Below, piece by piece: positions 870 through 28,490 of a DNA stretch of 61,055 nucleotides; positions within the stretch are counted from its first letter, which is position 1, and each line of letters begins with the position of its first letter. Below the pieces are notes generated by a model. It searched no databases and was not told the DNA's origin. It saw only the letters and a program-made list of their open reading frames with translations. Source of the DNA: Bacteroidales bacterium (GTDB taxonomy: Bacteria > Bacteroidota > Bacteroidia > Bacteroidales > UBA12077); contig JAWOEH010000150.1 in the NCBI GenBank assembly GCA_046482855.1, forward strand, positions 1 through 61,055, written 5' to 3'. The translations under genes and the position numbers were made by a program.

Positions 870-1944
870 AAATATCGGTATTAAGGCTGAGCTCAACCAG
901 GTGATGCTTTTCGCGAATCACCTTCAACTGATGCCCCTCTGGATACAAAAGCTGCAACCGCTCGCGAATATTGGGTAATCCAATGCCCCCGGCAGTTTTT
1001 GTGTGTTTATTTTTGGTAAGATCGTCCCCCACACTATTTTCAACACAGAAGCACAAATGGCTATTCTCTACTTCCAGACTGATCTTGATAAAAGCCCCTT
1101 TCTCATGAAAGTTGCCGTGTTTGAATGCATTCTCGACAAAAGGAAACAGCAACAAAGGCGCTATACTAACAGATGGAAAAGGCTCGGGCAAATCAAGCGT
1201 TAACGGCAACTTATAAGCCCTTCGCGATTGCTCCAGCCTGACAAAGCGCCTGATAAAGTCCAACTCATCTGTTAAGCGGATAGTTTGTCGGTTGCATTTA
1301 TACAAAATAAAATCGAGCATTTCGGAAAGATCCAGAATCATCTCTTTCGACCGCTCCGGCGAATCTTCGATGAGCCCATATAAATTATTCAGCATATTAA
1401 ATAAGAAATGAGGATGCAATTGTCCCTGCAGTAGTTCAATACGGGCCTCTTTGAGTTTACTTTCCACCTCTTTGCGTCGCTGCACTGCCTCCTGCTTCTC
1501 CACCTGGCGCCGGTAGGTCTCCTTGACAAAGTGCAAAATGGCCGACAACAATACAATCAGATACGTACCGGAAAGCAAAAGTGTGATGTCGGCTGGTTGT
1601 GGCACAACCAATTGCGGCATGTAGTAGCCCGAATAAAGCAAAATAAGTATAAGAACCAGAAAAGTCAGCCAGAAGGAAACCACCAGGGTAAACAGTAACA
1701 AATAGGCAAATAAGCCTATCTTTCCCCGAAACAAAAAGCGATGTATCAACACCCGGTTAATCACCTGCGACACGCCCAGGCTCATCAACAACAACAAAGT
1801 CACTAACACAATGCGAATACCCACATCGTATGTGCGATTGGTGAAGACAACGAAAAGCATCACAACAGCAAGCGACCAAAAAATCAACTTCGCTGTGGCA
1901 CTTTTCCGAAGCAGCAATTGATGATAATCCTCTGACAGTTCCAT
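862..1944 (-). CDS. LytS/YehU-family membrane sensor histidine kinase
   Basis: N-terminal TM helices, H-box QLHPHFLFNMLNNLY, N-box PFVENAFKHG, G-box GGIGLPNIRERL. The start was moved to ATG 1944 because the longer ORF overlaps the divergent gene. Confidence 0.93.
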   Translation of the reverse strand: MELSEDYHQLLLRKSATAKLIFWSLAVVMLFVVFTNRTYDVGIRIVLVTLLLLMSLGVSQVINRVLIHRFLFRGKIGLFAYLLLFTLVVSFWLTFLVLILILLYSGYYMPQLVVPQPADITLLLSGTYLIVLLSAILHFVKETYRRQVEKQEAVQRRKEVESKLKEARIELLQGQLHPHFLFNMLNNLYGLIEDSPERSKEMILDLSEMLDFILYKCNRQTIRLTDELDFIRRFVRLEQSRRAYKLPLTLDLPEPFPSVSIAPLLLFPFVENAFKHGNFHEKGAFIKISLEVENSHLCFCVENSVGDDLTKNKHTKTAGGIGLPNIRERLQLLYPEGHQLKVIREKHHLVELSLNTDIYG

Positions 1945-2142
1945 ACAACCAAAGATACAATCTTTCCAGGAAGCAGATTCTTTTTTTTGGCGAACTACCC
2001 AATATGCCCCCTGAAGGTAAATGATTACCTTTAGCGTATTAGTTGTGTTGTTTAATAGCAAGGAGTGGTCGTTGGCCAAGTTTGTTTCCGATTCAGCAAC
2101 AAGTCCTTTAACATTGCTGCATAAACCTTTAAACAAACTATT

Positions 2143-2514
2143 ATGATTGCAAAACATTTTTACGAAGGCGGTCCTTTGTTTATGGCAATGATTTATGCCC
2201 TATGGATTTTGGCTCTGATCATGGCCATTCGCTGGATCTACATTTACATAAAGGGTAGCAGTAACGAGGCAAAGCTCAAGAGACAGAACAACTCGATTCT
2301 TTTTGTAGGAAGCTTTGGATTTCTGCTGGGTATTTTTGGCCAAGCCATTGGGTTGTACGAAGCCTTTCAGGCTATCTATACAGCAGGCGACATCTCACCA
2401 GCTCTTATAGCCGGCGGCCTGCGTGTTTCCATGCTCACCACACTTTATGGGTTTGCATTGCTTTTAGTTAGTTCGCTAATATGGGTAACCTTCCGTCACC
2501 TGAACAAGGCGTAA
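2143..2514 (+). CDS. Small MotA/TolQ/ExbB proton-channel family protein
   Basis: Three TM segments with EGGPLFM, GFLLGIFGQAIGLYEAF and ISPALIAGGLRVSMLTTLYG, typical of ExbB/TolQ TM2-TM3. Confidence 0.8.
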   Translation: MIAKHFYEGGPLFMAMIYALWILALIMAIRWIYIYIKGSSNEAKLKRQNNSILFVGSFGFLLGIFGQAIGLYEAFQAIYTAGDISPALIAGGLRVSMLTTLYGFALLLVSSLIWVTFRHLNKA

Positions 2515-2588
2515 AATGGAATGTTCCCGGGTTGTTCTGTAAACAAGAAGGAGTTAACAAGCTTGACTTGTAAGCAGAACAACCATTT

Positions 2589-3305
2589 TTAACCCGTTTG
2601 GCTCATCTCCAGCAGGGCCTTTTTATTGTGAATCACCACCTGGTGATTGCTGTTGGAGATAAACTTCTCTTTCTGGAATTCCTGCAATGTGCGCACTACA
2701 CTCATGGTTGACATACCGCTCATCTCCGCCAGATCTTTGCGCGAGAGTGCCAGGTGAAAGGCATCCTCTCCATAAACCTTATCGGCCAAATAAAGAAGGA
2801 CATCGGCCATGCGCCCATTCAATTGTTTCATGGTGAGCGACACCATTTTTTGCCGCGTAGCTAACAAATCGGCATTGACCGACTGAAGCACCTGAGCGGC
2901 AAAAAGACCATTCTGCTCCAACAACTGCTCTATCACTTTCCTATCAATGGCACAAATAAAGGAATCCTCAAGGGCAGCAATGGAATATTGGAAATGAGCA
3001 CCCCCAAATAACGAGGCCAACCCTAACATCTTGCCGGTGCGGTGAATGCTATATATTAAGTTCGAACGATAATCCACTTCATTGTAAACCTTCACCAGTC
3101 CCTTTTTCAAATACAACATATGCGTAATGAAGGCACCTTGTTTGGCAATGGTTTCCCCCTTTTTAAAATGCAGGTGTACTTTATGGTCGCTTACTTGCTG
3201 TAGCTCTTCAGAAGTTAGCTTTTCAAAACAGGCCGACTTTGCCGGACAATTCATACACATGCCAAGAGCCTTATCGGCAGAGGTAGTTTTATGCAGTGTA
3301 TTCAT
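2589..3305 (-). CDS. Crp/Fnr-family transcriptional regulator with an FNR-like Cys-rich N-terminus
   Basis: N-terminal CMNCPAKSAC, cNMP-like barrel with a further Cys (FICAID), C-terminal HTH LSRKDLAEMSGMSTMSVVRTLQEF. Divergent from the mbs-like operon. Confidence 0.9.
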   Translation of the reverse strand: MNTLHKTTSADKALGMCMNCPAKSACFEKLTSEELQQVSDHKVHLHFKKGETIAKQGAFITHMLYLKKGLVKVYNEVDYRSNLIYSIHRTGKMLGLASLFGGAHFQYSIAALEDSFICAIDRKVIEQLLEQNGLFAAQVLQSVNADLLATRQKMVSLTMKQLNGRMADVLLYLADKVYGEDAFHLALSRKDLAEMSGMSTMSVVRTLQEFQKEKFISNSNHQVVIHNKKALLEMSQTG

Positions 3306-3419
3306 TTCAAGTGGGTTAAATAAAAAAATCACACATCTCTAAGATACAATATATCTGGCGCAATAAAAAGGTTGCGCTATTTTAATTCAAAAACCAATGT
3401 GCCAAATCTACAAAAACTT

Positions 3420-3463
3420 TTGTTAATATCTTAACACATCTATATTTGTTAATAAATCAATAA
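3420..3463 (+). promoter_or_regulatory. Two Rex/CRP-like palindromes flanking a TAnnTTTG promoter of the mbs-like operon
   Basis: TTGTTAA-TATC-TTAACAC (3420-3437), the -7 element TATATTTG (3441-3448), then TTGTTAA-TAAA-TCAATAA (3446-3463). Rex consensus is TTGTGAA-N4-TTCACAA. Confidence 0.55.
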
Positions 3464-3472
3464 CAAAAACTG

Positions 3473-3967
3473 ATGAACATTAAAAACATCCTGCTAACAG
3501 CCCTCATATTGTTGTTGTTCTGGTTGTTACTCGTAAATGATTTCACCCTCACCTCTCTTATTTTGGGTATGGCTGTAGCCCTTATTCTGAGTGTGGTACT
3601 GTGCAAATCATGCGGTGTTTTTTCCGATGTAAAACTTACCCCTGCATCGTTTTATTACACCTTTGTGTACCTGGGCATTTTTTTACTGGAGCTAATTCAA
3701 TCCAACCTGGATGTTGCCCGTCGTGTAATTTCCCCTTCGCTTCCCATTAAACCGGGTATTGTGGAGGTAAAAACGCGTCTGACCTCACCCATGGCCCGTT
3801 TGATTTTAGCAAACTCCATTACCCTCACACCGGGTACCTTAACGGTCGATCTTACCGGCGACAAGCTTTACATACACTGGATTGAAGTACGGGCCGAAGA
3901 TAGGCAGGCAGCAACGGAATACATTGTTCGCAAATTTGAAAAATATTTAGAAAAAATTTATGATTAA
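3473..3967 (+). CDS. MrpE/MnhE-like subunit (MbsA/MbxA)
   Basis: PGIVEVKT and LANSITLTPGTLTVD, LYIHWI motifs of MrpE. Confidence 0.92.
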   Translation: MNIKNILLTALILLLFWLLLVNDFTLTSLILGMAVALILSVVLCKSCGVFSDVKLTPASFYYTFVYLGIFLLELIQSNLDVARRVISPSLPIKPGIVEVKTRLTSPMARLILANSITLTPGTLTVDLTGDKLYIHWIEVRAEDRQAATEYIVRKFEKYLEKIYD

Positions 3968-4220
3968 TCTACTGCTTACCCTTGCATTAGGATTCATGCT
4001 GGCCGCGATGGTTGTGGCAGCAATCCGGTTTTTTATGGGCCCCCGGACAACCGACCGGGTGATTGCATTCGATGTGTTAACAATTACCTCGCTGTCGCTC
4101 ATAGTATTAATCGCTTGGTATGCCGGGCGATCAATCTACCTGGATATTGCCATTGTATATGGTTTATTAAGTTTTTTAGGGGTGATCATCATTGCCCGTT
4201 ATTTAGAAAAAGGATTATAA
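3960..4220 (+). CDS. MrpF/MnhF-like subunit (MbsB)
   Basis: 86 aa with three TMs and the GPRTTDRVIAFD motif. Confidence 0.92.
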   Translation: MINLLLTLALGFMLAAMVVAAIRFFMGPRTTDRVIAFDVLTITSLSLIVLIAWYAGRSIYLDIAIVYGLLSFLGVIIIARYLEKGL

Positions 4221-4235
4221 TTAAATAGGAGACGG

Positions 4236-4592
4236 ATGGAAGAATTAGGCGCAATCATTGTCCTTATCGGATCGATATTTTTATTTCTGGGAGCTTTAGG
4301 TTTACTGCGCATGCCCGATAGTTTTACGCGTATACAGGCAGGTACAAAAGCCTCTACACTGGGAACCTTACTCACAACAGCAGGTTTTATCTTTCTTGCA
4401 CCTGCATGGTGGGGCAAGTTGGTAATTCTCATGGTTTTTATCATGTTAACCAACCCCATATCGTCGCATGTATTGGCACGTGCAGCGTATCATATAAAAA
4501 CACCACTTACCCCGCGCACTGTGGTGGATAAGTATAAGCCATCGGAAGCTCCTGTTGTTGAATCGACAAAATCTGACACTCATGCTCATTAA
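4236..4592 (+). CDS. MrpG/MnhG-like subunit (MbsC)
   Basis: GLLRMPDSFTRIQAGTKASTLG and NPISSHVLARAA motifs. Confidence 0.92.
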   Translation: MEELGAIIVLIGSIFLFLGALGLLRMPDSFTRIQAGTKASTLGTLLTTAGFIFLAPAWWGKLVILMVFIMLTNPISSHVLARAAYHIKTPLTPRTVVDKYKPSEAPVVESTKSDTHAH

Positions 4593-4827
4593 ATTATTGG
4601 CTTTGGTATTGGGGCTACTCATTCTTGGGATTGCCTTATTTGCCTTACACGCAAGAAAAGTTTCGGTAGCCATTCTGGGTGCCGGAGCCGTTAGTCTGCT
4701 GGCCTCCGTAATGTTTCTGCTGATGGCGGCCCCCGATGTGGCCATGACAGAAGCAGCCATAGGTAGTGGACTTAGCACCATCATCTTTTTTTATGTACTC
4801 AATAAAATCCGTCAACAAAATGGTTAG
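4582..4827 (+). CDS. DUF4040 / MbhD-like subunit (MbsD)
   Basis: APDVAMTEAAIGSG motif of the MrpA C-terminal/DUF4040 domain. ATG at 4582. Confidence 0.88.
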   Translation: MLIKLLALVLGLLILGIALFALHARKVSVAILGAGAVSLLASVMFLLMAAPDVAMTEAAIGSGLSTIIFFYVLNKIRQQNG

Positions 4828-5521
4828 ATATATCATTGTACTGCTTTTGCTCATCGGGTTTGGCGCCATGCTCTATCCGCTTGTAGTCGAGTTTCAGAGC
4901 CCGGAAAAACTCCCGGAGGTGGCCTCAGTGTATGCCCGGCAAGGTCCCGGAGAAGTAGGGGCTGCCAACCTGGTTACAGCTGTTGTTGTTACCTACCGCG
5001 GACTTGACACCCTGGGCGAGGTGACCATCTTGTTTTTGTCAGCCGCAATAGTTGCCTTTATGTTAAAAATGGCACAAGAAAATAAACAATCACGCACCTT
5101 TCACCCGGTAAGTGAAATTTTGCAAACCGGATCAAAAGTACTTACTCCCGCGGTCTTCCTGTTAGGGGTTTATGTATTTATTCACGGGCATCTGACCCCT
5201 GGTGGAGGCTTTCAGGGAGGCGCCATACTGGCCTCGGGCTTTGTGCTAATGCTTTTGGCTAAACCCGATCTTCGCTGGAATAAAAACCTGATACACACAG
5301 TAGAATCCATATCAGGCTTTGCCTTTGTATTCATCGGAATCCTGGGAATTATATATGCCGGAGGATTTTTAGACAACAGCCTGTTAGCCCTGGGCACTTT
5401 CGGAACAGTACTTAGCGCAGGTGCCATTCCTCTAATTTACTTGTTTATCGGGTTAAAGGTAGGCGCTGAACTGGCATCGATTGTAGGGAATTTACAAGAA
5501 TCGCAAAATCAAACTGTATGA
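4820..5521 (+). CDS. MrpB/MnhB-like subunit (MbhE+F type, MbsE)
   Basis: NLVTAVVVTYRGLDTLGEVT and HGHLTPGGGFQGG motifs. ATG at 4820 overlaps the previous gene. Confidence 0.9.
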   Translation: MVRYIIVLLLLIGFGAMLYPLVVEFQSPEKLPEVASVYARQGPGEVGAANLVTAVVVTYRGLDTLGEVTILFLSAAIVAFMLKMAQENKQSRTFHPVSEILQTGSKVLTPAVFLLGVYVFIHGHLTPGGGFQGGAILASGFVLMLLAKPDLRWNKNLIHTVESISGFAFVFIGILGIIYAGGFLDNSLLALGTFGTVLSAGAIPLIYLFIGLKVGAELASIVGNLQESQNQTV

Positions 5522-5889
5522 ACGCATTAGGACTGGAACAGATTGCCCTGGCTATCGGTGTGCTCTTGGCACTCATTGGTTTGTGGGGAATTCTCACACA
5601 AAAACATATCATAAAAATGATTGTAGGTTTTGCCTTACTGGACACAGGCATCCATCTGATTATGATAGCAGTGGGGTATGTAAAAAACGCCACAGCCCCC
5701 ATAATTAGCGAAACCGTTACCAAAATCAATGCAGCAGAAAAAATTGCCGACCCCATTCCGCAGGCATTGGTATTAACGGCCATTGTCATTGGCCTTGGAA
5801 TAACTGCACTGATGCTGAGCTATGCGCTAAAAATGCATCAGCAAAAGAAATCATTGGAAATCAATCAATATAAAGAATTGAAATGGTAG
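5518..5889 (+). CDS. MrpC/MnhC-like subunit (MbsG)
   Basis: ADPIPQALVLTAIVIG motif of MrpC. Confidence 0.93.
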   Translation: MNALGLEQIALAIGVLLALIGLWGILTQKHIIKMIVGFALLDTGIHLIMIAVGYVKNATAPIISETVTKINAAEKIADPIPQALVLTAIVIGLGITALMLSYALKMHQQKKSLEINQYKELKW

Positions 5890-8800
5890 GACCTGTGTAC
5901 ATTATAGCGGTAGCCTTAGGGCTGGCCTTTTTACTGGGCTTTTTAAAGCATGGAAATCAACGCCTTTCACTCTTGCTCATGCTAGTGGGCGTAGGGTTTA
6001 TGGCATTTACTTCCGCACAATGGCTAACCGCCCATTTAAGCGGAGAAGCAATTGAAAGCACCCAATTTACTGCCGGCTTCAAACCGCCCTTCTCCATCAG
6101 TCTGCAGATGGGCTTGGCCGAAGCAACCATTACCGGTATGATCAACCTGTTTGGACTCCTCGGTGGCCTGTACCTGTGGCGGCGTCTTTTTAAACTGGGC
6201 GTAAATGCACAAATCATCTATCTGGTTACCTTAATGGGCCTGAATGTGATTGTGATGACCCGCGATATCTTTAACCTGTTTGTATTTTTTGAGGTGAGCA
6301 GCATTGGTATTGTAGGACTCATTTTGCTACAACAAAAAGCCCAGGCGCTCTCCTCTGGTTTTAAATACTTAATGGCAACAGGATTAATCTCCTCATTTTT
6401 GCTCATTGGGATTATCATGATCTATCGCTTCTCCGGTACCCTCTATATAAACGATCTTTTAGCGGCTAACCTGGGAGTTAGCAAGGGTGTAATGGTATCC
6501 CTCTTTCTGTTGCTAATGGCGTTAATTTTGGAGCTAAAACCCTTCCCTGCCAATGGCTGGGCACTGGATGTTTACCAAAGCAGCCACCCGGGTATTGGAG
6601 CCCTCCTATCGGGTGGGTTTGCAACGGCTGCCCTGTTTGTGCTGTATAAACTATGGCCCATATTCCCTTATCATTGGAGTGTATTTGTTGCCGTGCTGGG
6701 AGGAATCACCTTTTTGGCCTCCAACCTGCTGGGTTTGAAACAACAAAACGCAAAACGTCTACTAGGATACTCCAGTGCTGGACAAGTGGGCTTACTATTG
6801 GCAGTTCTGGGGTTACAACCTGTTTTGGGTAGCTCCTTCCCCTTCATCGCCTTAACCCTGCTGGGCAGTCATTTTCTGGCAAAAAGCGGCCTATTTTGGC
6901 TCGCCGGTATTGTCAACCAACAAAATATCAGGCAGTGGAGCGATCTGCGAAAGCACCCATTAACAGTTGTACTGTTTGCCCTATTTATTTTTACGCTTTT
7001 AGGGCTCCCCCCGTTTCCCTCGTTCTTCGGAAAATGGCAATTGATAATGGAGTTATCGGGAGCCCAACAATTGCAGTGGGTGGTGGTTATTTTGCTGGGT
7101 AGTTTTTTCGAAGCAGCCTACCTGTTCCGTTGGTTTGGGTATGTGTTAAAGGAAGATCTTTCCGAAAAAACGCCTGCGGGCTTCAAGCACGTGGAAAAAT
7201 TTATCGGCCCCATTGTGTTTGGCTTATTATCGTTACTGGGGGGGTACTATGCAGCCCTATGGTTGAATGAATCGATGCTTGTTGTTTACATTCCGTTGCT
7301 GTTTATTGCTGCTATCGGACTCCTGGATTTTCTACCGGCCTGGACAAAAAACACCCTCTCCATCGCAGCCATGGCTTTTTATGGAGTGACTAAACTCCCC
7401 GGTTTATATGAAGCCGATTTGCTTCGGTTTATCTTTATGGCCATTTTTATTGTAGGCGGTATACTTACCCTCATTGCAGGGTATCACTATAAAGGAACAA
7501 GAAAAGGATTTTATCTGCCTGCGCTACTCATGTTTGCGGGTTTGGGTGGCATTATTGAAGCCCAAAGTCTGTTAGCTTTCTTTTTCTCATGGGAACTTAT
7601 GACCATCGGTTCTTACTTCCTGATTATCCGGGGTAAACGATCGATGAAGCATGGTTTGAGTTATATCCTCTTTTCCCTGGGCGGAGCGTATCTGCTGCTC
7701 TCGGCTTTTGGTTTACTCAATGCACAGGCAGGAGGAGCCATTAGCGCTTTCGCCCACATGGGCGCACAAACAGCCCTCATTTCAACACTTCTGGCCATTG
7801 GCTTTATGACCAAAACGGCCTCTCTGGGCTTACACATTTGGCTCCCCGGAGCCCATGCCGAGGCCGAATCGGATGTATCGCCGATGGTTTCGGCCATTTT
7901 ACTGAAAGCTGGCGTATTCGGATTGATCCTTACTATTTTAGGAATGGGTGCCGAACAAGCAGGAGGCAGTAAGCTTTTATATGCACTAGGGTGGCTGGGC
8001 GCCATAACAGCGCTGGTGGGAAATTTGGCCGCAAGTTTACAGGAAGATGCCAAACGGCTACTGGCTTACTCCAGCATTGGACAGCTGGGCTATATTTTGT
8101 TTGCCTTTGCCATGGCCACACACCTGGGCTGGATGGGTGGATTTGTGTATGTAATCAACCACTTTGCTTTTAAAGCAGTGCTGTTCCTTACCATTGGTGC
8201 CGTAGTATTGCGCGTAGGTACGCATAATATGTACGAAATGGGTGGTTTAATAAAACGCATGCCACTGGCCTTTATAGCTGTTTTAATGGGTATCATCACG
8301 CTTTCAGGTGTTCCTCCTTTGTCGGGATTTGCAGGTAAATGGTTTTTCTACCACGCTTTGATTTTAAAGGGGTGGTATTTTCAGGGTGCTCTTATACTTT
8401 TTGCCGGAATTATCGCCTTTTTATACAGCTACCGATTGATACAGACTGTTTTCCTGGGACAACTAAAAGACACCCATCGTCAGGTAAAAGAGATTTCCAT
8501 CTGGTTCCTGATACCCATTTACCTCCTGTTGGCTGGTATTATGGTATTCTCTGTAAAGCCCGATTGGATTCTGGCGCCAATCAGTAACTATCTGGCAGCA
8601 GCATTCCCATCGAACCAGGTAGTTTGGGACGGAGCCGCTGCCACTACTTCCTTAGGCTATTGGAATGGCACTTGGGTAATGATTATTGTAGGCGTAATGT
8701 TTATGCTGATTTTAGGTTGGCTGCTATGGCTAAATGCCCACGCCACAAAAGTGAAACAATTCAATATGGTCTATTCGGCTGAGCGGCCATTCCGCCCCGA

Positions 8801-9011
8801 GACCACACACATGGCGCATAATATGTATGCAGGCTACAACAAAGCATTAGGTTTTTTGGTAGCTCCCGGCATTACGCGTTTTTGGCAAGCTATAACCGAT
8901 TTTACGGAAGATATCGCCGATTTTGTGCGGCGTATCTATACCGGCAACGGACAAACCTATGCCCTGCATATTGTGGCCTATCTTGTAATCATCTATTTCG
9001 TGATCTTCTAA
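5883..9011 (+). CDS. Fused double MrpD/MrpA-like proton-translocating subunit (MbsH+MbsH' type)
   Basis: 1042 aa with two antiporter-like repeats: DIFNLFVFFE...KRLLGYSSAGQ...GLPPFPSFFGKW, then FFFSWELM...HIWLPGAHAEA...KRLLAYSSIGQ...GVPPLSGFAGKW. C-terminal YTGNGQTY. Confidence 0.9.
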   Translation: MVGPVYIIAVALGLAFLLGFLKHGNQRLSLLLMLVGVGFMAFTSAQWLTAHLSGEAIESTQFTAGFKPPFSISLQMGLAEATITGMINLFGLLGGLYLWRRLFKLGVNAQIIYLVTLMGLNVIVMTRDIFNLFVFFEVSSIGIVGLILLQQKAQALSSGFKYLMATGLISSFLLIGIIMIYRFSGTLYINDLLAANLGVSKGVMVSLFLLLMALILELKPFPANGWALDVYQSSHPGIGALLSGGFATAALFVLYKLWPIFPYHWSVFVAVLGGITFLASNLLGLKQQNAKRLLGYSSAGQVGLLLAVLGLQPVLGSSFPFIALTLLGSHFLAKSGLFWLAGIVNQQNIRQWSDLRKHPLTVVLFALFIFTLLGLPPFPSFFGKWQLIMELSGAQQLQWVVVILLGSFFEAAYLFRWFGYVLKEDLSEKTPAGFKHVEKFIGPIVFGLLSLLGGYYAALWLNESMLVVYIPLLFIAAIGLLDFLPAWTKNTLSIAAMAFYGVTKLPGLYEADLLRFIFMAIFIVGGILTLIAGYHYKGTRKGFYLPALLMFAGLGGIIEAQSLLAFFFSWELMTIGSYFLIIRGKRSMKHGLSYILFSLGGAYLLLSAFGLLNAQAGGAISAFAHMGAQTALISTLLAIGFMTKTASLGLHIWLPGAHAEAESDVSPMVSAILLKAGVFGLILTILGMGAEQAGGSKLLYALGWLGAITALVGNLAASLQEDAKRLLAYSSIGQLGYILFAFAMATHLGWMGGFVYVINHFAFKAVLFLTIGAVVLRVGTHNMYEMGGLIKRMPLAFIAVLMGIITLSGVPPLSGFAGKWFFYHALILKGWYFQGALILFAGIIAFLYSYRLIQTVFLGQLKDTHRQVKEISIWFLIPIYLLLAGIMVFSVKPDWILAPISNYLAAAFPSNQVVWDGAAATTSLGYWNGTWVMIIVGVMFMLILGWLLWLNAHATKVKQFNMVYSAERPFRPETTHMAHNMYAGYNKALGFLVAPGITRFWQAITDFTEDIADFVRRIYTGNGQTYALHIVAYLVIIYFVIF

Positions 9012-9024
9012 AGTGTACTGACTT

Positions 9025-9933
9025 ATGAATGAAATTGTAATAAAATTAGCCTGGACACTCCTGGGATTATTCATCGTATTGAATTGGGGTATGTTAATGG
9101 GGGCTACCATGCGCAAGCTCGTAGCTAGGGTAGCGAACCGCCATGGAATACCGTTCTACCAACCCTGGCTAAACTTAATTAAGCTTTATGGCAAACGAAC
9201 ATCCATTTCCCATGGCGTAATGTTTTACCTGGGTCCGGTATTTCGTCTGGGTGGCGGAGTAGGTATTTTCCTGTTTCTTCCCCTGATATATGGTTCTGAG
9301 CACTTTAGTAACTTCTCCTGGGCCGGAGATTTAATCTTGATTCTCTATTTCCAGTTCTTTGGCATGCTAGGCATGGCTTTAGGAGCAGGTGAAGGCGGAC
9401 ATCCCAACTCGGTAATTGGTATTACCCGTGGATTGGCACAGTTTACTACCGTGGAAATTCCCCTGACACTGGCAGTTATTTCTCTGGCTTTGCAATACCA
9501 TACCCTGTCGATATCCGAAATTGTAGCCGCCCAACAAGGGGGTATTGCCAACTGGACTGTGGTAACCAATCCACTGGCCACTATTGCCGCCATGCTGTCG
9601 CTATTGGGAACTTTCCGCCATGCGCCTTTCAATTTGGTAAAAGCGCCAAATGAGGTACCTATAGGGCCCCCTACTGAGTATCACTCGGCATTTCTGGGTG
9701 TACTCCAGACCAATGGAGCCATTCTCCATGTGGTTGAGGCTGCGCTGTTTATGAACTTGTTTTTTGGCGGCGCCACTAATTGGGTCGAATTTATTGTAAA
9801 AACGTTCTTTATCTATTTTTGGTCAGTATTTGTGGGAGTTGTATTCCCTCGTTTCCGCATTGAACAGTCGGTTACCTGGTTTTTAAAGGTACCTCTGTTA
9901 ATTGCTATCCTGGCCGTTATTCTATATATCTAA
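9025..9933 (+). CDS. NuoH-like membrane anchor subunit (MbsM)
   Basis: RKLVARVANRHGIPFYQP, PFNLVKAPNE..GPPTEY and FPRFRIEQ motifs of complex I subunit 1. Confidence 0.92.
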   Translation: MNEIVIKLAWTLLGLFIVLNWGMLMGATMRKLVARVANRHGIPFYQPWLNLIKLYGKRTSISHGVMFYLGPVFRLGGGVGIFLFLPLIYGSEHFSNFSWAGDLILILYFQFFGMLGMALGAGEGGHPNSVIGITRGLAQFTTVEIPLTLAVISLALQYHTLSISEIVAAQQGGIANWTVVTNPLATIAAMLSLLGTFRHAPFNLVKAPNEVPIGPPTEYHSAFLGVLQTNGAILHVVEAALFMNLFFGGATNWVEFIVKTFFIYFWSVFVGVVFPRFRIEQSVTWFLKVPLLIAILAVILYI

Positions 9934-9950
9934 CTGCAAACCGATAAACT

Positions 9951-10643
9951 ATGTCAGATACACATAATCCATTTGAGGAAGATCCCCGGGAGTTCGACAA
10001 GTTCCTGGACGACGATAGCAAAGCAAGACAAGTTACCGGTCCCGACGGAAATTCCTTCGAGGTAGATCCGATGCGCGATTACTTTTGCGATAAACGACCT
10101 GAGGTTGAAGTGCCAAAAAATAAAGTGATTGAGAAATTTCTCAACTGGGCACGAGCCGAATCACTATGGGTACTGGGTTTTGGGACAGGTTGTGGAAGCA
10201 TTGAAATACCGCCTTTATTATCTCCCCGATTCGACGCCTTTCGGTTTGGTGTGCAAATGCGCCCAACACCCCGGCAATCGTCGGTACTCATTATTTCCGG
10301 CTACCTGGCAGTAAAGACATTGAAACGGGCCATTCGCACCTATGAACAGATGCAAAGCCCCAAATACGTTCTGGCACTGGGAAGTTGCACCATTAATGGC
10401 GGCATGTATTACGACTCTTACAACACCATCAACCGGGTTGATTATTACCTACCGGTAGATGTATATGTTGCAGGTTGTATGCCCCGACCGGAAGCACTTC
10501 TGGCAGGATTTAACAAACTAAAGGAACGCATTAAAGCAGGACGTGCCGAAGGAGCAAATAAATATGCCGAGGAGTTTGACTGGTATAAAGCCAATCAGAA
10601 AAAGATTATTAAAAACTGGAATATGCCCGACTACAACTGGTAA
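9951..10643 (+). CDS. NuoB-like Fe-S subunit (MbsJ type)
   Basis: GTGCGSIE (single Cys81 rather than CC), GSCTINGG and AGCMPRPE. Confidence 0.92.
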   Translation: MSDTHNPFEEDPREFDKFLDDDSKARQVTGPDGNSFEVDPMRDYFCDKRPEVEVPKNKVIEKFLNWARAESLWVLGFGTGCGSIEIPPLLSPRFDAFRFGVQMRPTPRQSSVLIISGYLAVKTLKRAIRTYEQMQSPKYVLALGSCTINGGMYYDSYNTINRVDYYLPVDVYVAGCMPRPEALLAGFNKLKERIKAGRAEGANKYAEEFDWYKANQKKIIKNWNMPDYNW

Positions 10644-10698
10644 GAAATACTTGAAATCCGTTGTAAGTTGACCATTCATAAAAAATTTGATTGTGCAT

Positions 10699-11232
10699 AT
10701 GGAAAAAATTATCCAAAATATAACGCAGAGGTTTTCGGTTTCCGATTCGGTTGAAAAGCGCGATAACCTGACCTTTGTAACTGTCAAACAAGACCTGGCC
10801 GTGGCGCTCATTACGCATTTACGCGACATTGAAGGATTTGCCCATTTCGTGCTGTTAACAGCTGTCGATTGGATTGAAGAGGAAAAATTTCAACTGACCT
10901 ACATTCTGAATTATCCCGAAAGAAAGATCGATTTAGGCATTCGCGTTTATATCGACCGGAACAATCCAACCATGGATTCTGCCCATCATTTATGGGAACA
11001 GGTCGCCACTTATCAGCGCGAGCTGAAAGAGATGTTTGGCATTGATTTCCCGGGCAGCCCACGAGTAGATGAATCATTCATTCTGGAAGGCTGGGACAAT
11101 ATTCCTCCTTATCGGCGCGACTTTGACACATTAAAATATGCGGAAGAAACCTTCTTCCCTCGCGAAGGAAGAGAAACCAACGATCCGGCAACATACATGA
11201 AGAAAAAGCTTTATCCCGATGAAGAAAAATAA
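10699..11232 (+). CDS. NuoC-like subunit (MbsK)
   Basis: LTAVDW, YQRELKEMFGIDFPG and PPYRRDF motifs. Confidence 0.9.
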   Translation: MEKIIQNITQRFSVSDSVEKRDNLTFVTVKQDLAVALITHLRDIEGFAHFVLLTAVDWIEEEKFQLTYILNYPERKIDLGIRVYIDRNNPTMDSAHHLWEQVATYQRELKEMFGIDFPGSPRVDESFILEGWDNIPPYRRDFDTLKYAEETFFPREGRETNDPATYMKKKLYPDEEK

Positions 11233-12409
11233 TTGGCAATGGCAGCCCGATCGGGCAAAATATCCGAAAGTTGATGCTGCAGGCAACCCACAGATAGACT
11301 TGGCCAGTGAGAAATATGTAAAATTATGGCAAGGGCCTAACCATCCGGGGGTTACCGGAAACATGTCGCTGGAGTTGACCCTGAGCGGCGATGAAATTGT
11401 GGACGCAAAAACCCATGTGGGCTATCTCCACCGTGGATTTGAAAAATTGATGGAACGTCGTACCTACATGCAATGTTTTCCTTTAAGCATTCGTATGTGC
11501 GTGCCCGAAGCCGATTCAAACGAATACGTATTGGCACGTTGTATTGAAGAGTTATCAGGCATCGAGGTGCCGGAAGCTGCCGAATGGATGCGCACGCTTG
11601 TACTGGAAATGGCACGGTTGCAAGTACTCCTGCGTACCGTACCCGGACAGGCCGCAACGCTCTCTTTGGGTCTTGGCTCGCAATGGGGAATGTACCTGCG
11701 TGAACTTATTCTCGACAGATTTGAGGAACTTACCGGCGGACGTATTTACCACATGTTTATTGTTCCCGGAGGAGTGAGGGGCTTACTTCCTGAAGGATTT
11801 AAAGACCGAATGGAGGAAAACCTGAAAAAAATTGAAGAATTCGTGGGTAAGATCGAAGATTTGATCTTTACCAATTCCGTATTTAAAAAGCGTACCATTG
11901 GCGTAGGGGTTATCGACCCCGCATGGGTGAACAAATATGGCATTGTCGGTCCCAATGCCCGGGGAGCCGGATTTCACCGGGATGTAAGGAAGGACTATCC
12001 GTACTTGAAGTATGACGAGTTGGATTTCGAACCTTACGTAGGCACCGATTCGGATATCTACACACGTGCTCAGGTGCGAAAGCACGATTTGCTCATGACT
12101 GTTGATATTATTCGTCAAATTTTGGCTCGCATACCGGAAAAAGGCCCTATTCGAGCCCGCACACCCAACGTATTGCACTGGGAAATTCCCAAAGGTGAAA
12201 CCTATGTGCGCTCCGAATCGTCGCGTGGAGAATACGGTATGTATATGGTTTCCGATGGGTCGAAATACCCGCGCAGAGTAAACCTGCGAGGCCCCAGCTA
12301 CACACACGCGGTAGCATTGCTGGAGCGTATGCTTATTAATGCCAACATTGCCGATGTGCACGCCATTATGGTTTCTCTGCAAACCTGTCCGCCAGAAATT
12401 GAGCGTTAA
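11219..12409 (+). CDS. NuoD-like catalytic subunit without a NiFe site (MbsL type)
   Basis: GPNHPG, GYLHRGFEK, RMCVPEAD (Cys94) and C-terminal LQTCPPEIER (Cys390). The hydrogenase L1/L2 CxxC pairs are absent. Confidence 0.92.
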   Translation: MKKNNWQWQPDRAKYPKVDAAGNPQIDLASEKYVKLWQGPNHPGVTGNMSLELTLSGDEIVDAKTHVGYLHRGFEKLMERRTYMQCFPLSIRMCVPEADSNEYVLARCIEELSGIEVPEAAEWMRTLVLEMARLQVLLRTVPGQAATLSLGLGSQWGMYLRELILDRFEELTGGRIYHMFIVPGGVRGLLPEGFKDRMEENLKKIEEFVGKIEDLIFTNSVFKKRTIGVGVIDPAWVNKYGIVGPNARGAGFHRDVRKDYPYLKYDELDFEPYVGTDSDIYTRAQVRKHDLLMTVDIIRQILARIPEKGPIRARTPNVLHWEIPKGETYVRSESSRGEYGMYMVSDGSKYPRRVNLRGPSYTHAVALLERMLINANIADVHAIMVSLQTCPPEIER

Positions 12410-12493
12410 CAGGGAGTATTACGATAGCCGGCCGATCTTCCCGAAAAAGAACGGCAACAAATAAAAAGATGACGTTAATAAAAGTTACAAATT

Positions 12494-14308
12494 ATGAGCT
12501 TGAAAGATATACTCACTCCCTTTACAGCCTGGAAAGGGCTATTTGAAGAGTCCGTCACATTGAAAGACCCCATCAACGAGCGGCCTGGCGCCGACAGGTA
12601 TCGGGGATTTCACAAAAATGACATGGAGACTTGTATTGGCTGTGGTACCTGTGAAGAAATTTGCGAAAATAAAGCCATTGACATGGTGCCCGTTGAAGGA
12701 ATTAAAACCACCGATGGCGATAGTGGCTTGCGCCCACGTGTAGATTATGGACGTTGTTGCTGGTGTGCCTTATGTGTGGATGTGTGTACAACAGGTTCTC
12801 TTTCACTTACCAATGAATATATTTGGGTTTCGGAAGATCCGGAAGAGTTCCGTTTTGTGCCGGGCGCTGAGAAAAAAGAGTGGGACACAAAAGAAAAAGG
12901 ATGGCACAAACCGGAACACGATTACCACCTCTACCCGCCCGACCGCATAGAAATGCAACACCTGCATCCGGAAGAACGAAGCGACTCCTTTGTAGAGTTG
13001 GTAAAGGGTTACTCGGCTGATGAGGCAAAAAAAGAGGCCGACCGTTGTGTGGAATGTGGCATTTGTATTGCCACTTGCCCGGCACACATGGGCATACCGG
13101 AGTACATAAAAGCCGTTCGCCAAGACTCGATAGAAGAGGGATTCAATATTCTATACGAAACCAACCCTTTACCGGAGATTTGTGGTCGTATTTGCACACA
13201 CAAGTGTGAAACCGTTTGCTCTGTAGGCCATCAGGGCGATCCCTTATCCATTCGCTGGTTGAAGCGTTATATTGCCGACCAGGTTGTCTCGGAAGATTAT
13301 AAAAAGATCTTAAAAACCGATAGCATTGAACAAAATGGGAAAAAAGTAGCCATCATCGGGGCAGGTCCCTCAGGCCTGTCTGCAGCACACTACCTTGCTT
13401 TAATGGGCTATGAGTGTACTATTTACGAAAAACTTCCCGAAGCCGGTGGTATGATGCGTTATGGCATTCCGGAGTACCGGTTGCCGTACAACCAGCTGGA
13501 TAAAGATATAAACTACATCCTGAGCCTGGGCGTTACCTTAAAAAACAATGTAACTATCGGCAAAGACATTACCTTGAAAGAGCTGAAAGAACAATACGAT
13601 GCCGTATTTGCCGGAACAGGTTTACACATAGGCCGAAGCACGCGCATTCCCGGCACCGACCATGAAGAGGTGTACATGGCAGCTGACTTGTTACGCAAGA
13701 TCTCCCTGGGCGAGGAAATTCCGGTGGCTGAAAACATCGTTGTAATTGGCGGGGGAAATGTGGCAATGGACATTACCCGCTCGCTGGCTCGTTTGCAAAA
13801 GAACAAATACGGCAAAATACAGGTGCTGGCTACCTCGCTCGAGTCCGAAGACATTATGCCGGCCGATCGTGAAGAGGTAGTTGAGGCAAGGGAAGAAAAC
13901 GCAACTATTGAACCCGGATGGGGCCCGGAAAGAATCGAAATCGAAGAGGGTAAACTTAAAGGCCTTCATGTAAAAAAATGCCTCTCGGTGTTCAACGAAG
14001 AAGGTCGCTTCAGTCCTGTATTCGACGACAACCAAACACGCTTCTTCGAAGCCGACATGATTGTTGAGTCCATTGGACAGGGGATGGATCTTAGCTACAT
14101 ACCCGACGAAGTTCGCGACGAAATTACCTTTGACGAACGCGGCCGTATTTTGGTTAATGACTACTTCCAGGCAAAAGCCGGCTGGCTCTTCCTGGGAGGA
14201 GACATGATTCAGGGGCCCGATGTAATTCATGGCATTGCCAATGGACATAAAGCGGCAAGAGGGATCGATAAATTCCTGAACGGCCAGCTTACCTACGAGG
14301 ATGTATAA
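12494..14308 (+). CDS. NuoI/MbsN-like 2x[4Fe-4S] domain fused to a GltD/PreT-like FAD-NAD(P)H oxidoreductase
   Basis: RYRGFH..CIGCGTCEEIC..CCWCALCVDVC, then EADRCVECGICIATCP, CGRICTHKCETVC, IIGAGPSGL, GGMMRYGIPEYRLP and IGGGNVAMD. Confidence 0.92.
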   Translation: MSLKDILTPFTAWKGLFEESVTLKDPINERPGADRYRGFHKNDMETCIGCGTCEEICENKAIDMVPVEGIKTTDGDSGLRPRVDYGRCCWCALCVDVCTTGSLSLTNEYIWVSEDPEEFRFVPGAEKKEWDTKEKGWHKPEHDYHLYPPDRIEMQHLHPEERSDSFVELVKGYSADEAKKEADRCVECGICIATCPAHMGIPEYIKAVRQDSIEEGFNILYETNPLPEICGRICTHKCETVCSVGHQGDPLSIRWLKRYIADQVVSEDYKKILKTDSIEQNGKKVAIIGAGPSGLSAAHYLALMGYECTIYEKLPEAGGMMRYGIPEYRLPYNQLDKDINYILSLGVTLKNNVTIGKDITLKELKEQYDAVFAGTGLHIGRSTRIPGTDHEEVYMAADLLRKISLGEEIPVAENIVVIGGGNVAMDITRSLARLQKNKYGKIQVLATSLESEDIMPADREEVVEAREENATIEPGWGPERIEIEEGKLKGLHVKKCLSVFNEEGRFSPVFDDNQTRFFEADMIVESIGQGMDLSYIPDEVRDEITFDERGRILVNDYFQAKAGWLFLGGDMIQGPDVIHGIANGHKAARGIDKFLNGQLTYEDV

Positions 14309-14334
14309 CAACACAAACCCATAAATCAACTGCT

Positions 14335-15324
14335 ATGACTGATTTATCCACCAAATACATGGGACTGTCGCTAAAAAACCCACTTGTGGTAGGCAGCTCG
14401 GAATTAACCAACAGCACTTCAAAAATTGCAGACCTTGAAAAACAAGGTGCCGGAGCTGTCGTATTAAAATCGCTCTTTGAAGAGCAAATAATGAGCGAGG
14501 TGAATGCCCAACGCGTAAACAATATGTATGGTTCCTATCAAGAGGTCGAAAACTATGTATCGTTTTATACACGCAAGCACGATTTGGACGAATACCTCGA
14601 GCTGATACGCAAATCCAAGCAAGAAGTTGACATACCCATTTTGGCAAGCATTAACTGTATATCCAACGGTGAGTGGATTGACTTTGCCCGACAAATGGAG
14701 CAAGCCGGTGCCGATGGGTTGGAGCTGAATATGTTCATCTTACCAAACGACCCTTCAAAAACCAGCCAGCAACTTGAGCAAATTTATTTTGACGTACTGG
14801 AGGAGGTGAATAAAGCCGTGGATCTGCCCGTATCGATGAAGGTAGGCAGCTATTTCTCAGGAATGGCCAATATCCTTGTGGAGTTGTCAGAAAAAGGCCT
14901 TGATGGCATGGTGCTTTTTAATCACTTTTACCGACCCGACATTGATATAGAGGAAGAAAAAGTGAGGGCTGCCGACATATTCAGCGAGCCGCGCGACATT
15001 GCCAATACGCTCAGATGGATAGGGATTTTGTATGACAAGCTCAAGTGCGACATGGCCGCCTCAACCGGAATACATACCGGGGAAGGGGCAATCAAAGCCC
15101 TTTTGGCCGGCGCAAAGGTGACACAAATAGCCTCCACTTTGTATAAAAACAAGCCGCTCTATATAGGTACCATGCTAAAGGATATGAAAAACTGGATGCA
15201 AAAGAAAGGCTATACTACACTTGCCGACTTCCGTGGGAAAGTGAGTCAGGCAGAAATCAAGCAACCCATGATGTACGAGCGTGCCCAGTTTATGAAGTAT
15301 TACTCAAATTACAGCAATAAGTAA
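14335..15324 (+). CDS. Dihydroorotate dehydrogenase-like FMN TIM-barrel protein lacking the catalytic Cys
   Basis: LSTKYMGLSLKNPLVVGSS, GAVVLKSLFEEQI and ASTGIH..GAKVTQIAS. ELNMFIL replaces ELNxSCPN. Confidence 0.88.
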   Translation: MTDLSTKYMGLSLKNPLVVGSSELTNSTSKIADLEKQGAGAVVLKSLFEEQIMSEVNAQRVNNMYGSYQEVENYVSFYTRKHDLDEYLELIRKSKQEVDIPILASINCISNGEWIDFARQMEQAGADGLELNMFILPNDPSKTSQQLEQIYFDVLEEVNKAVDLPVSMKVGSYFSGMANILVELSEKGLDGMVLFNHFYRPDIDIEEEKVRAADIFSEPRDIANTLRWIGILYDKLKCDMAASTGIHTGEGAIKALLAGAKVTQIASTLYKNKPLYIGTMLKDMKNWMQKKGYTTLADFRGKVSQAEIKQPMMYERAQFMKYYSNYSNK

Positions 15325-15348
15325 TAAAACCAACCGGTTATTATCGAT

Positions 15349-15396
15349 AAGCACCTGCCAAAAAGTTTTTTCCCTATTTGGCAGGTGCTTTCTTTT
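15349..15396 (+). terminator. Rho-independent terminator of the mbs-like operon
   Basis: AAGCACCTGCCAAA (15349-15362) pairs with TTTGGCAGGTGCTT (15377-15390), followed by a T-rich tail. Confidence 0.85.
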
Positions 15397-15443
15397 ATAT
15401 TTCTAACCAACAATCAATTAAACCATGTAAATAAATCCTCCTA

Positions 15444-15561
15444 CTTGTGCGTAATCGCACAAGATTGTTCATTACCGAACACAATATCAATACATTACAC
15501 CAGAGACACAACCGCAACACTCTGACTAACTTGACTTTACAACATAAGGCACAAGCTTTGA
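15444..15561 (+). promoter_or_regulatory. Tandem enhancer-like palindromes plus a sigma-54-like -24/-12 promoter
   Basis: CTTGTGCG-TAAT-CGCACAAG (15444-15463) and TGTTC-N6-GAACA (15466-15481) have cores 20 bp apart. GGCAC-aagct-TTGA (GG-N10-GA) lies at 15548-15561. Confidence 0.6.
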
Positions 15562-15585
15562 GCTAACTCAAAAAAAAGCTACGCC

Positions 15586-19730: not shown

Positions 19731-19760
19731 AAAAAAATTTAAGTTATCTTCACGGCGCAA

Positions 19761-27232: not shown

Positions 27233-27242
27233 AATTTTGCAT

Positions 27243-28454: not shown

Positions 28455-28490
28455 AGTTGTATGTTTTTTTCAGATCTTCCCTAAAGATAT

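Follow-up and report, generated by a model that had tools for sequence, protein, structure and literature searches.

The membrane-bound sulfane reductase (MBS) of the hyperthermophilic archaeon Pyrococcus furiosus, formerly called MBX, is held to be a missing link between hydrogenases and complex I, and to our knowledge only this archaeal enzyme has been characterized. Here, we describe a related operon of a Bacteroidales genome. It lies on the plus strand of contig JAWOEH010000150.1 (assembly GCA_046482855.1), a stretch of 61,055 nucleotides (nt) that was analyzed as a whole and is called the window below. According to the text of PMC7684303, C28, C93 and C123 of the MbsJ subunit are the sole ligands of the proximal [4Fe-4S] cluster of the archaeal enzyme, its free iron is proposed as the catalytic site, and C25 of MbsJ is too distant for ligation. 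The same text describes C85 and C385 of MbsL as vestigial and dispensable for activity, and the quinone ligands H38 and Y87 as lacking in MbsL. A bacterial, GltD-type variant was noticed in 2015: the text of Degli Esposti (2015; PMC4758237) describes mbx-like operons of Thermotoga and proteobacteria that combine Mrp and Nuo-like genes, carry a gltD-related flavoprotein at the NuoI position, retain vestigial Cys in NuoD and often end with a rubrerythrin gene. Bacteroidota are not named among the hosts in that text, figures and supplements aside.

The window operon belongs to the same wide family. New are the presence and frequency of the complex in a Bacteroidota family, an N subunit that is fused and not replaced, an invariant three-Cys site as against variable Cys residues in the L subunit, two types of nucleotide site, and a partner similar to dihydroorotate dehydrogenase (DHODH) in place of rubrerythrin. 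None of these points came up in the literature searched, and neither an Mbx/MBS complex in Bacteroidota nor a link of a DHODH-like protein to MBX was found there, most subscription journals, figures and supplements lying outside the search.

Genes were called from open reading frames (ORFs) and Pfam matches, and subunits are named below by their MBS letters (Table 1). Positions 3473-12409 hold 11 closely packed plus-strand genes in the order mrpE-F-G, DUF4040, mrpB, mrpC, mrpD/A and nuoH-B-C-D, just as the original prediction had read them. Its further claim that this segment encodes a complete complex holds only if the N gene at 12494-14308 is included; for 3473-12409 as such, it fails. We regard 3473-15324 as the unit, since the N fusion starts at 12494, the DHODH-like gene follows 26 nt further on, and a 261-nt gap with a terminator-like hairpin comes after it. 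Neighboring genes of the operon overlap or lie at most 84 nt apart. By content and order, the segment 3473-15324 is a single predicted operon for a bacterial MBX/MBS-type respiratory complex, with 12 genes for the equivalents of all 13 P. furiosus MBS subunits plus one extra gene. The MBS order A-B-C-D-E-G-H-H'-M-J-K-L-N was found in one operon, with H and H' fused: in the pump protein, the NCBIfam model PRK08377 covers residues 4-429 (the MbsH-like half) and PRK08668 covers residues 502-1039 (the MbsH'-like half). A set of NuoA, J, L, M or N genes was not seen in the cluster among its ORFs and Pfam matches. A scan of species genomes for L relatives yielded at least 80 loci in other genomes, and counts given below are among the 80 loci listed. 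Since the same gene order recurs in the 80 loci listed, the arrangement is not due to chance.

The original prediction had assigned the complex to the MBS/MBX type, and comparison with solved structures led to the same assignment. L, J, N, M and H' were compared with the PDB, and each of these five subunits had its best match in P. furiosus MBS (6U8Y). The L protein scored 294.8 bits with 6u8y_L, followed by Thermus thermophilus Nqo4 (208.3), MbhL (134.6) and HycE (104.2). J grouped with MbsJ by bit score (212.9 with 6u8y_J, 136.6 with NdhK as the next match, 96.0 with MbhJ), and M scored 132.7 with 6u8y_M and 49.8 with the next chain. H' matched 6u8y_X (MbsH') with 200.8 bits over residues 515-1037 of the pump fusion, and the N domain matched 6u8y_N with 83.2 bits over residues 6-128, compared to 43.0 for the best NuoI and 32.3 for MbhN.

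Phylogeny of the L subunit, proposed as a check by the original prediction, pointed in the same direction. A search of 1.84 billion representatives showed that the Bacteroidota clade of L forms one representative at 50% identity. The nearest full-length relatives outside this clade, P0247 and P0249, are about 40-41% identical to L, and their best solved match is MbsL (363 and 347 bits, respectively). Among the ten nearest representatives, the more distant ones carry archaeal NuoD/FpoD names (Zestosphaera, Parvarchaeota, Methanosarcina and Heimdallarchaeota). The trees were built for L only; P. furiosus MbsL, MbhL and Nqo4 were not among their rows, and P0247 and P0249 served as proxies of MbsL. 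In a FastTree tree of 170 rows, the window L fell into a 41-row clade (SH-like support 94) with all locus proteins, P0247 and P0249, separate from the representatives with NiFe motifs (100) and from the mass of NuoD/FpoD sequences (97). A quick IQ-TREE run on 62 of these rows, with 108 omitted, placed the 23 locus proteins in one group (SH-aLRT 86) that was sister (92) to P0247 plus P0249, again with the NiFe group apart (99). Thus, in both trees the window L stands in an MbsL-like clade, outside the NuoD/FpoD and NiFe clades, and the groupings that the original prediction had named as grounds for its refutation did not appear.

We then compared the residues of the catalytic pocket. The J protein has the motif GFGTGCGSIE, in agreement with the predicted GTGCGSIE in place of the CC of complex I, and the only other Cys residues of its conserved part are C146 and C176. 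C81, C146 and C176 align with MbsJ C28, C93 and C123, and Gly78 aligns with the nonligating C25. By this alignment, the predicted proximal [4Fe-4S] site of J is held by exactly three Cys residues, and the tandem Cys pair of complex I is absent. All three residues were kept in each of the 71 loci covered at these positions, of which 48 have Gly and 23 have Cys at the position equivalent to C25 of MbsJ. In the L protein, the quinone ligands H38 and Y87 of Nqo4 face T46 and V95 in an ungapped part of the alignment. Among the 80 loci, none has His at the H38 position, and every one has Val at that of Y87.

The Cys residues of the L protein are at positions 86, 94, 108 and 390. As predicted, Cys94 (IRMCVPE) and Cys390 (TCPPEIER) stand singly; a sequence scan revealed no CxxC pair and neither of the NiFe motifs RxCGxC and DPCxxC. 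Cys94 is retained in 63 of the 80 loci and Cys390 in 47 of the 77 covered, and loci of the Thermotogae type lack both. Since they are replaced in many family members, including the Thermotogae type, Cys94 and Cys390 are not diagnostic; they are best seen as a vestige, and the three-Cys cluster of J is the stable signature by these alignments. The claim that these two residues characterize the family was thus abandoned, and their MbsL counterparts are not catalytic according to the text of PMC7684303. Judged by its sequence relationships, the complex is related to archaeal MBS and not an ordinary complex I, and its predicted pocket is of the MBS kind.

In addition to the 13 subunit equivalents in the same order and the three-Cys proximal cluster, the window complex shares with P. 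furiosus MBS the vestigial single Cys at both NiFe positions of L and the absence of the quinone-binding His and Tyr. It differs in the fusion of H and H', in the Gly of J at the position of MbsJ C25, and in the extra DHODH-like gene. Furthermore, the window host is a bacterium of mesophilic habitats and not a hyperthermophilic archaeon. A further difference concerns N, which in P. furiosus is a free-standing, ferredoxin-fed protein with two [4Fe-4S] clusters. In the window, the MbsN/NuoI-like domain with two [4Fe-4S] motifs occupies residues 6-128, approximately, of the 604-residue protein P0003 and is followed, at about residues 150-600, by an NfnB/SudA/GltD-like module with two more [4Fe-4S] motifs, a flavin adenine dinucleotide (FAD) site and a pyridine nucleotide site.

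The alignment of residues 150-596 of P0003 with the large subunit of NfnI (5jca_L, 267.6 bits) spans that entire chain; both [4Fe-4S] motifs are present, as are the FAD site and, with GGGNxAMD, the second Rossmann motif. The NCBIfam model NF010590 ("putative oxidoreductase") gave 896 bits for residues 2-598, just short of the 946 bits of its cut-off. P0003 differs from NfnB/SudA by the added N-terminal MbsN-like domain, and the window cluster holds no partner gene of the NfnA/PyrK type. The cluster-binding Cys residues are present for all five predicted [4Fe-4S] sites of J and the fusion protein. In the related loci, the fused N sits directly after L. The N gene encodes a full-length fusion in 63 of the 80 loci. 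In 9 others it is split or truncated at the end of a contig, and in 3 it is out of reach; the remaining 5 loci, from three Campylobacterota, one Thermoplasmata and one Synergistota, have a free-standing N. The text of PMC4758237 speaks of a "substituted" NuoI; in contrast, the window and these 63 loci keep the NuoI/MbsN-like domain, fused before the GltD-like part. Relatives of the fusion protein (71-91% identity, 582-610 amino acids [aa]) are named glutamate synthase small chain or FAD-dependent oxidoreductase, and they were found in the cultured species Prolixibacter bellariivorans and Tenuifilum osseticum. In two loci labeled Spirochaetota, the frame of the N fusion is 749-767 aa long (L051:11098-13344 and L052:11132-13432), which suggests a further C-terminal domain, possibly a fused rubrerythrin-like gene.

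The nucleotide site of the fusion protein is of two types. The NADPH-type YRRTRK that follows the second Rossmann strand in NfnB is replaced by the acidic ATSLESED in the window protein, and the site is likewise acidic in the window clade, in a proteobacterial clade and in the Thermotogae/Planctomycetota type. YRRR is kept in another subclade, which includes loci labeled Melioribacter, Prolixibacteraceae and Cloacimonadota. In an alignment of other loci with the window clade (L047, L032, L040, L035, L033, L042, L048, L037, L058, L044, L038, L049, L053, L043 and L041 were compared), the acidic type appeared as T/S-L-E-S/D with a short insertion, and the split into two types tracked the subclades of the L subunit. 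By the Rossmann rule, the acidic form indicates NADH and the Arg form NADPH. The site of the window clade therefore looks NADH-type, and the donor would be NAD(P)H, here probably NADH. Given this NfnB/GltD-like NAD(P)H flavoprotein in the same chain as N, and the DHODH-like gene behind it, ferredoxin is unlikely to be the lone donor that it is in Thermococcales.

The final gene of the operon encodes P0004, which passes the NCBIfam model NF005741 ("dihydroorotate dehydrogenase-like protein") with 429 bits at a cut-off of 303. In the alignment, it has Leu at the position of the catalytic Cys of Lactococcus lactis DHODA, which we take to be C130. Across 22 family members this position is Leu or Met and the next substrate Asn is variable; the Lys residues of the flavin mononucleotide (FMN) site are conserved in the DHODH-like family. 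Judging from these residues, the product of 14335-15324 is not a true DHODH or dihydropyrimidine dehydrogenase (DPD). The gene adjoins N in 13 of the 16 regions of related species with enough downstream sequence. In other loci it lies downstream of N (L007, L008, L018, L021 and L048) or upstream of mrpE (L052, L053, L056 and L059). One relative has two tandem DHODH-like genes after the N fusion (L096:12121-13101 and 13835-14812).

P0003 and P0004 jointly hold all modules of DPD (bacterial PreT/PreA), as described in the text of PMC8097209: a GltD-like part with FAD and two [4Fe-4S] clusters, a DHODH-like barrel and an 8Fe ferredoxin-like domain. The order is permuted, since the 8Fe domain of the window is N-terminal to the GltD-like part and specifically MbsN-like, and the DHODH-like protein lacks the catalytic Cys. 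The likeness is weak, with DPD scores of 108.6 bits for P0003 and 31.7 bits for P0004. With complex I/NDH-1, the window complex shares homologues of NuoH, B, C, D and I, antiporter-like pumps and, by our reading, a flavin input for NAD(P)H at the tip. In contrast to complex I, this input is NfnB-like with FAD and not homologous to NuoEFG with FMN, the quinone ligands and the CC pair of NuoB are lacking, and a full Mrp module replaces NuoA, J, K, L, M and N.

The at least 80 loci belong to Bacteroidota, Ignavibacteriota, Pseudomonadota, Spirochaetota, Cloacimonadota, Acidobacteriota, Fermentibacterota, Campylobacterota, Thermotogota, Planctomycetota, Synergistota and others, with one Thermoplasmata archaeon. 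An L protein at least 63% identical to that of the window was found in 18 of the 24 species genomes of the host's family and in 2 genomes of the other families of its order. In an even sample of the phylum, the complex was rare: only 2 of 400 other genomes, both of one family, had an L match at E <= 1e-90. The best 120 protein matches of L all had at least 68% identity and, where named, were called NADH-quinone oxidoreductase subunit D or hypothetical protein, one MGnify tag aside; the organisms named were Bacteroidota, Bacteroidales, Salinivirgaceae, Saprospiraceae and "Chlorobi" metagenome-assembled genomes (MAGs). A Bacteroidota host, as originally predicted, is also indicated by the IspH protein of the window, of which 18 of the 19 named matches were from Bacteroidales, Bacteroidetes, Bacteroidota or Marinilabiliales. 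Metagenomes from 12 studies of sediment, mat, soil, freshwater, marine sediment and microbialites contained DNA at least 95% alike.

The host genome (3.37 Mb, 91.5% complete) has the window L as its only NuoD homologue. It encodes Rnf (rnfC, 588 bits), Nqr (nqrA, 508 bits), PFOR (1937 bits), cytochrome bd and eight matches to FeFe-hydrogenase. Two full-length CoADR/NSR-like genes scored 517 and 479 bits, below the equivalog cut-off. With PF03916, a polysulfide reductase subunit of the NrfD/PsrC type was not found in this 91.5% complete genome.

We conclude that the operon probably, if narrowly so, encodes a reductase of the MBS type that translocates ions and takes its electrons from NAD(P)H, in the window probably from NADH. 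The NfnB-like domain would be an NAD(P)H dehydrogenase input module, analogous to the N-module of complex I. NAD(P)H, here probably NADH, would reduce the FAD of the fusion protein, and electrons would pass through the two clusters of the NfnB part and the two of the MbsN part to the three-Cys cluster of J. The acceptor reduced at its open iron may be a sulfane-type S-S bond, as in polysulfide, a persulfide or an organic trisulfide, or else a different small acceptor, and the Mrp-type membrane arm would couple this reduction to translocation of H+ or Na+. That the substrate is reduced at the J cluster is suggested by the invariance of its three-Cys open-iron site; sulfane as the acceptor is proposed by homology. 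Electron transfer from NADH to sulfane is nearly isoenergetic. Because of this small energy yield, an enzyme that works near equilibrium, is also fed by ferredoxin or may run in reverse is a live option. The DHODH-like protein could add an FMN branch, as in DPD.

If the complex indeed couples NADH oxidation to sulfane reduction, models of sediment, mat and salt-lake Bacteroidota miss an energy-conserving sulfur-reducing step. If it has another function, the open-iron cluster has a second substrate yet to be found. The bacterial form, which occurs in many phyla, combines the unusual three-Cys catalytic cluster with an integral NAD(P)H flavoprotein. It is common in a single family of anaerobic Bacteroidota and, in the host genome, the sole complex-I-like enzyme. 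The cultured carriers Prolixibacter and Tenuifilum make its function directly testable.

Several points weigh against this reading. Every functional step of the mechanism is proposed by homology, and the small energy difference between NAD(P)H and polysulfide fits poorly with a complex of two pumps and an Mrp module. Among the carriers of the fused type, many are aerobes or iron or sulfur oxidizers (Tropicimonas, Gallionellaceae, Thiodiazotropha and Thioalkalivibrio), and sulfur respiration is not expected in them. Growth of Melioribacter roseus was not stimulated by elemental sulfur (S0) according to the text of PMC3534657; the fused-type cluster is present in a MAG labeled M. roseus (L049), a label that is the MAG's and not the type strain's. 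The DHODH-like gene is missing beside N in 3 of the 16 relatives, and the host genome has three stand-alone DHODH-like paralogues with unrelated neighbors (contig C198:23038-24009, 46% identical; C234:11668-12654, 44%; C132:13514-14485, 40%; all in G000). The DHODH-like protein may therefore not be a subunit. In 6 of 8 fused loci tested outside Bacteroidota, the operon ends with a rubrerythrin-like gene, as the text of PMC4758237 describes for mbx-like operons; in the window clade it ends with the DHODH-like gene. The terminal rubrerythrin-like gene hints at another acceptor or a protective role. Finally, the contigs from RNA libraries described below are compatible with carry-over of DNA.

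Alternatively, the ion-pumping sulfane/polysulfide reductase of the original prediction could hold as such, with a ferredoxin-dependent complex just as in Thermococcales and with the NfnB-like domain as an auxiliary redox-balancing add-on. The MBS-like catalytic site and membrane arm suit this explanation, as does the PFOR of the host genome as a source of reduced ferredoxin. The energy from ferredoxin to sulfane would be enough for pumping (42 kJ/mol per two electrons is quoted for MBS in the text of PMC8165549), and T. maritima mbxA was upregulated 4.4-fold with S0 according to the text of PMC9431562. We nevertheless consider a ferredoxin enzyme unlikely, since the MbsN-like domain is covalently fused to a full FAD/NAD(P)H module in most loci and many phyla, and N is free in just 5 of the 80. 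This strict conservation of the fusion argues for a pyridine nucleotide as the main substrate.

In an older model of MBX, the complex is an ion-translocating ferredoxin:NAD(P)+ oxidoreductase equivalent to Rnf, without a sulfur substrate, and the GltD-like domain reduces NAD(P)+. Electron transfer from ferredoxin to NAD+ yields energy for one or two ions, and the model suits carriers that do not respire sulfur. This function was proposed for the gltD-containing mbx-like operons of Thermotoga and proteobacteria in the text of PMC4758237. It seems doubtful here for several reasons. Coupling of the complex I type is driven at the NuoB/D/H pocket, and a path from ferredoxin to NAD+ confined to N would bypass this pocket. 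Moreover, the model leaves the open-iron cluster, invariant in all 71 covered loci, without a role in substrate reduction, and the genome already has Rnf. For P. furiosus, it was superseded by direct sulfane reduction (text of PMC7684303).

On a broader and speculative view, to which we give a similarly small chance, the Mbx family with fused N could be a widespread, unrecognized "alternative complex I" with an independent NfnB-like input and a non-quinone open-iron site. In the Bacteroidota clade, the FMN of the DHODH-like protein would complete a branched, DPD-like cluster chain. Electron pairs could then be split or merged by the NfnB-type flavin, with the membrane-coupled site on one side and a second, soluble acceptor on the other, and flavin-based bifurcation would be coupled directly to ion translocation.

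Less probable than these is reverse electron transport, in which the ion gradient would drive the reduction of NAD(P)+, and sulfide, polysulfide or a different weak donor would supply the electrons at the J/L pocket. Since the NADH and sulfane couples lie close together, the gradient could set the direction, and many carriers are sulfur- or iron-oxidizing autotrophs that need reverse flow, found among Thiodiazotropha, Sedimenticola, Chromatiaceae, Thioalkalivibrio, Gallionellaceae, Thiobacillaceae and tubeworm symbionts. However, the window host looks like a fermentative anaerobe (PFOR, FeFe-hydrogenase matches and Rnf) with no obvious need for reverse flow, and no experimental precedent for MBS running backward was found in the literature searched.

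The names in public databases imply a different function, namely, an ordinary quinone-reducing NDH-1/complex I of the Nuo-11 type beside an unrelated Mrp antiporter. The original prediction had expected such mislabeling, and it does occur: the L protein (P0001) passes the NCBIfam NuoD equivalog NF004739 with 368 bits at a cut-off of 360 and is therefore named NuoD, and the database labels for the complex are NuoD, GltD small chain and Mrp. The genome also has quinone-linked Nqr and cytochrome bd. Even so, an NDH-1 is very improbable, given that T46 and V95 take the places of H38 and Y87, that one Cys stands in J where complex I has CC, that L lies outside the NuoD/FpoD clade in two trees, that the Mrp genes adjoin the Nuo-like genes and are conserved together with them in at least 80 loci, and that no NuoA/J/L/M/N set was seen in the window cluster. 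A group 4 membrane-bound [NiFe] hydrogenase (Mbh/Ech type) is hardly tenable: it has the same layout of Mrp plus hydrogenase module, and the match to MbhL is a distant one, but one Cys is left of each NiFe CxxC pair (RMCVPE and CPPEIER) and the NiFe-motif representatives form a separate clade in both trees.

Table 1. Features of the operon region, with positions in the window
Feature	Position	Strand	Basis
Crp/Fnr-family regulator, divergent from the operon, candidate regulator	2589..3332	-	Pfam cNMP_binding and HTH_Crp_2
Perfect inverted repeat TGTTAA-N4-TTAACA, candidate operator	3421..3436	.	52 nt before the mrpE ATG
MrpE/MbsA-like membrane subunit	3473..3967	+	PF01899 MNHE, E 8e-41
MrpF/MbsB-like subunit	3960..4220	+	PF04066, E 1e-16
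MrpG/MbsC-like subunit	4236..4592	+	PF03334 MnhG, E 1e-24
MbhD/MbsD-like subunit (DUF4040 type), start codon uncertain	4555..4827	+	PF13244, E 4e-18
MbhE + MnhB (MbsE-like) subunit, start codon uncertain	4766..5521	+	PF04039 and PF20501
MrpC/NuoK-like (MbsG-like) subunit	5518..5889	+	PF00420, E 7e-23; NCBIfam Na+/H+ antiporter subunit C models
Fused antiporter-like pump pair (H and H'), 1042 aa	5883..9011	+	two Proton_antipo_M stretches
NuoH/MbsM-like membrane anchor of the peripheral arm	9025..9933	+	PF00146 NADHdh
NuoB/MbsJ-like subunit	9951..10643	+	Oxidored_q6; 6u8y_J best PDB match
NuoC/MbsK-like subunit	10687..11232	+	PF00329 Complex1_30kDa, E 8e-24
NuoD/MbsL-like subunit (P0001)	11219..12409	+	Complex1_49kDa; 6u8y_L best PDB match
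MbsN/NuoI-like domain fused to NfnB/SudA/GltD-like module (P0003), 604 aa	12494..14308	+	Fer4_7, Fer4_20 and Pyr_redox_2
DHODH-like, probably FMN-binding protein (P0004), final operon gene	14335..15324	+	PF01180
Terminator-like hairpin 3' of the final gene	15444..15463	+	top-ranked plus-strand site, inside the 261-nt gap before the next gene

A homologue of the Crp/Fnr-family regulator lies divergently upstream of mrpE in 9 of the 11 relatives that reach upstream, and likewise in L007, L008, L009, L010 and L021. The inverted repeat TGTTAA-N4-TTAACA between regulator and operon is the sole match in the window, and at least one match was present in 25 of 100 shuffles. The exact palindrome recurs at the same place in L097, L091 and L096 carry versions with at most one mismatch at -53 to -55, and TTGTA-N5-TACAA is found at the corresponding place in L088, L100 and L101. 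These data lend weak to moderate support to the palindrome as a putative operator. It is overlapped by a putative promoter of what we take to be the Bacteroidetes type (TTTG at 3419-3422 and TATATTTG at 3441-3448). A sigma-70 promoter scan was no better than shuffles (19 found versus a mean of 24.5), and the sigma-70 model is inapplicable to Bacteroidota.

Contigs of salt-lake metatranscriptome libraries, mostly at least 99% alike, spanned almost all of the operon with its flanks, and those at least 99% alike spanned 29, 28 and 27 of the 30 bins of region 2400-16400; such contigs of RNA libraries indicate presence only, and gaps in their cover are meaningless. According to the text of PMC10356935, the MBS genes of bacterium 3DAC were upregulated with S0. 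Sulfur-linked expression is thus documented only for T. maritima mbxA and the MBS genes of 3DAC, and for no Bacteroidota.

Beyond these results, we noted the following. In genome G010, a second MbsL-like gene, only 44% identical to that of the window (C75:2089-3177), lies beside a window-type copy, so a single genome can harbor Mbx-type clusters from more than one subclade. Another MbsL-like gene with 44% identity to that of the window is G020:C108:223-1311, and a window-type copy was not found there in the search. No extra gene upstream of mrpE was common to all loci of other phyla examined. Only L024, L037, L062, L079, L083 and L086, loci of several phyla, share an ORF of about 205 aa (31-50% identity), located upstream of mrpE or, in L086, after N; the window lacks it. 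Full MotA and MotB genes lie directly upstream of the mbx-like operon in a Gallionellaceae locus (L011:311-2100), and a short MotA/ExbB-like ORF is present just upstream of the window cluster (2143-2514, plus strand); this proximity is probably a coincidence. The DHODH-like paralogue on contig C132 is about 3 kb from the PFOR gene. The neighbors of the paralogues (DUF1015, YggS-like, MMPL, histidine kinases and an oxaloacetate decarboxylase subunit) gave no functional clue.

Elsewhere in the window, a LytTR response regulator and a LytS-type His_kinase form a pair upstream of the regulator gene (150-896 and 862-2157, minus strand). Two adjacent ORFs of 163 and 409 aa (18049-19760, minus strand) match no Pfam family at E <= 1e-5. 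They are followed by a Na+/H+ exchanger fused to a universal stress protein domain (19875-21920, plus strand) and by an amino acid permease fused to PTS EIIA-2 and TrkA-C (21999-24143, minus strand), an unusual regulatory architecture. Further on, five consecutive genes in region 24321-30657 (minus strand) encode a glycerate kinase, a protein of the GH13 alpha-amylase family, a 403-aa protein that matches no Pfam family, a HAD hydrolase and a GT1 glycosyltransferase. Together they could form a cluster for a glyceryl-glycoside compatible solute, which would fit the saline habitats of the runs with the same DNA.

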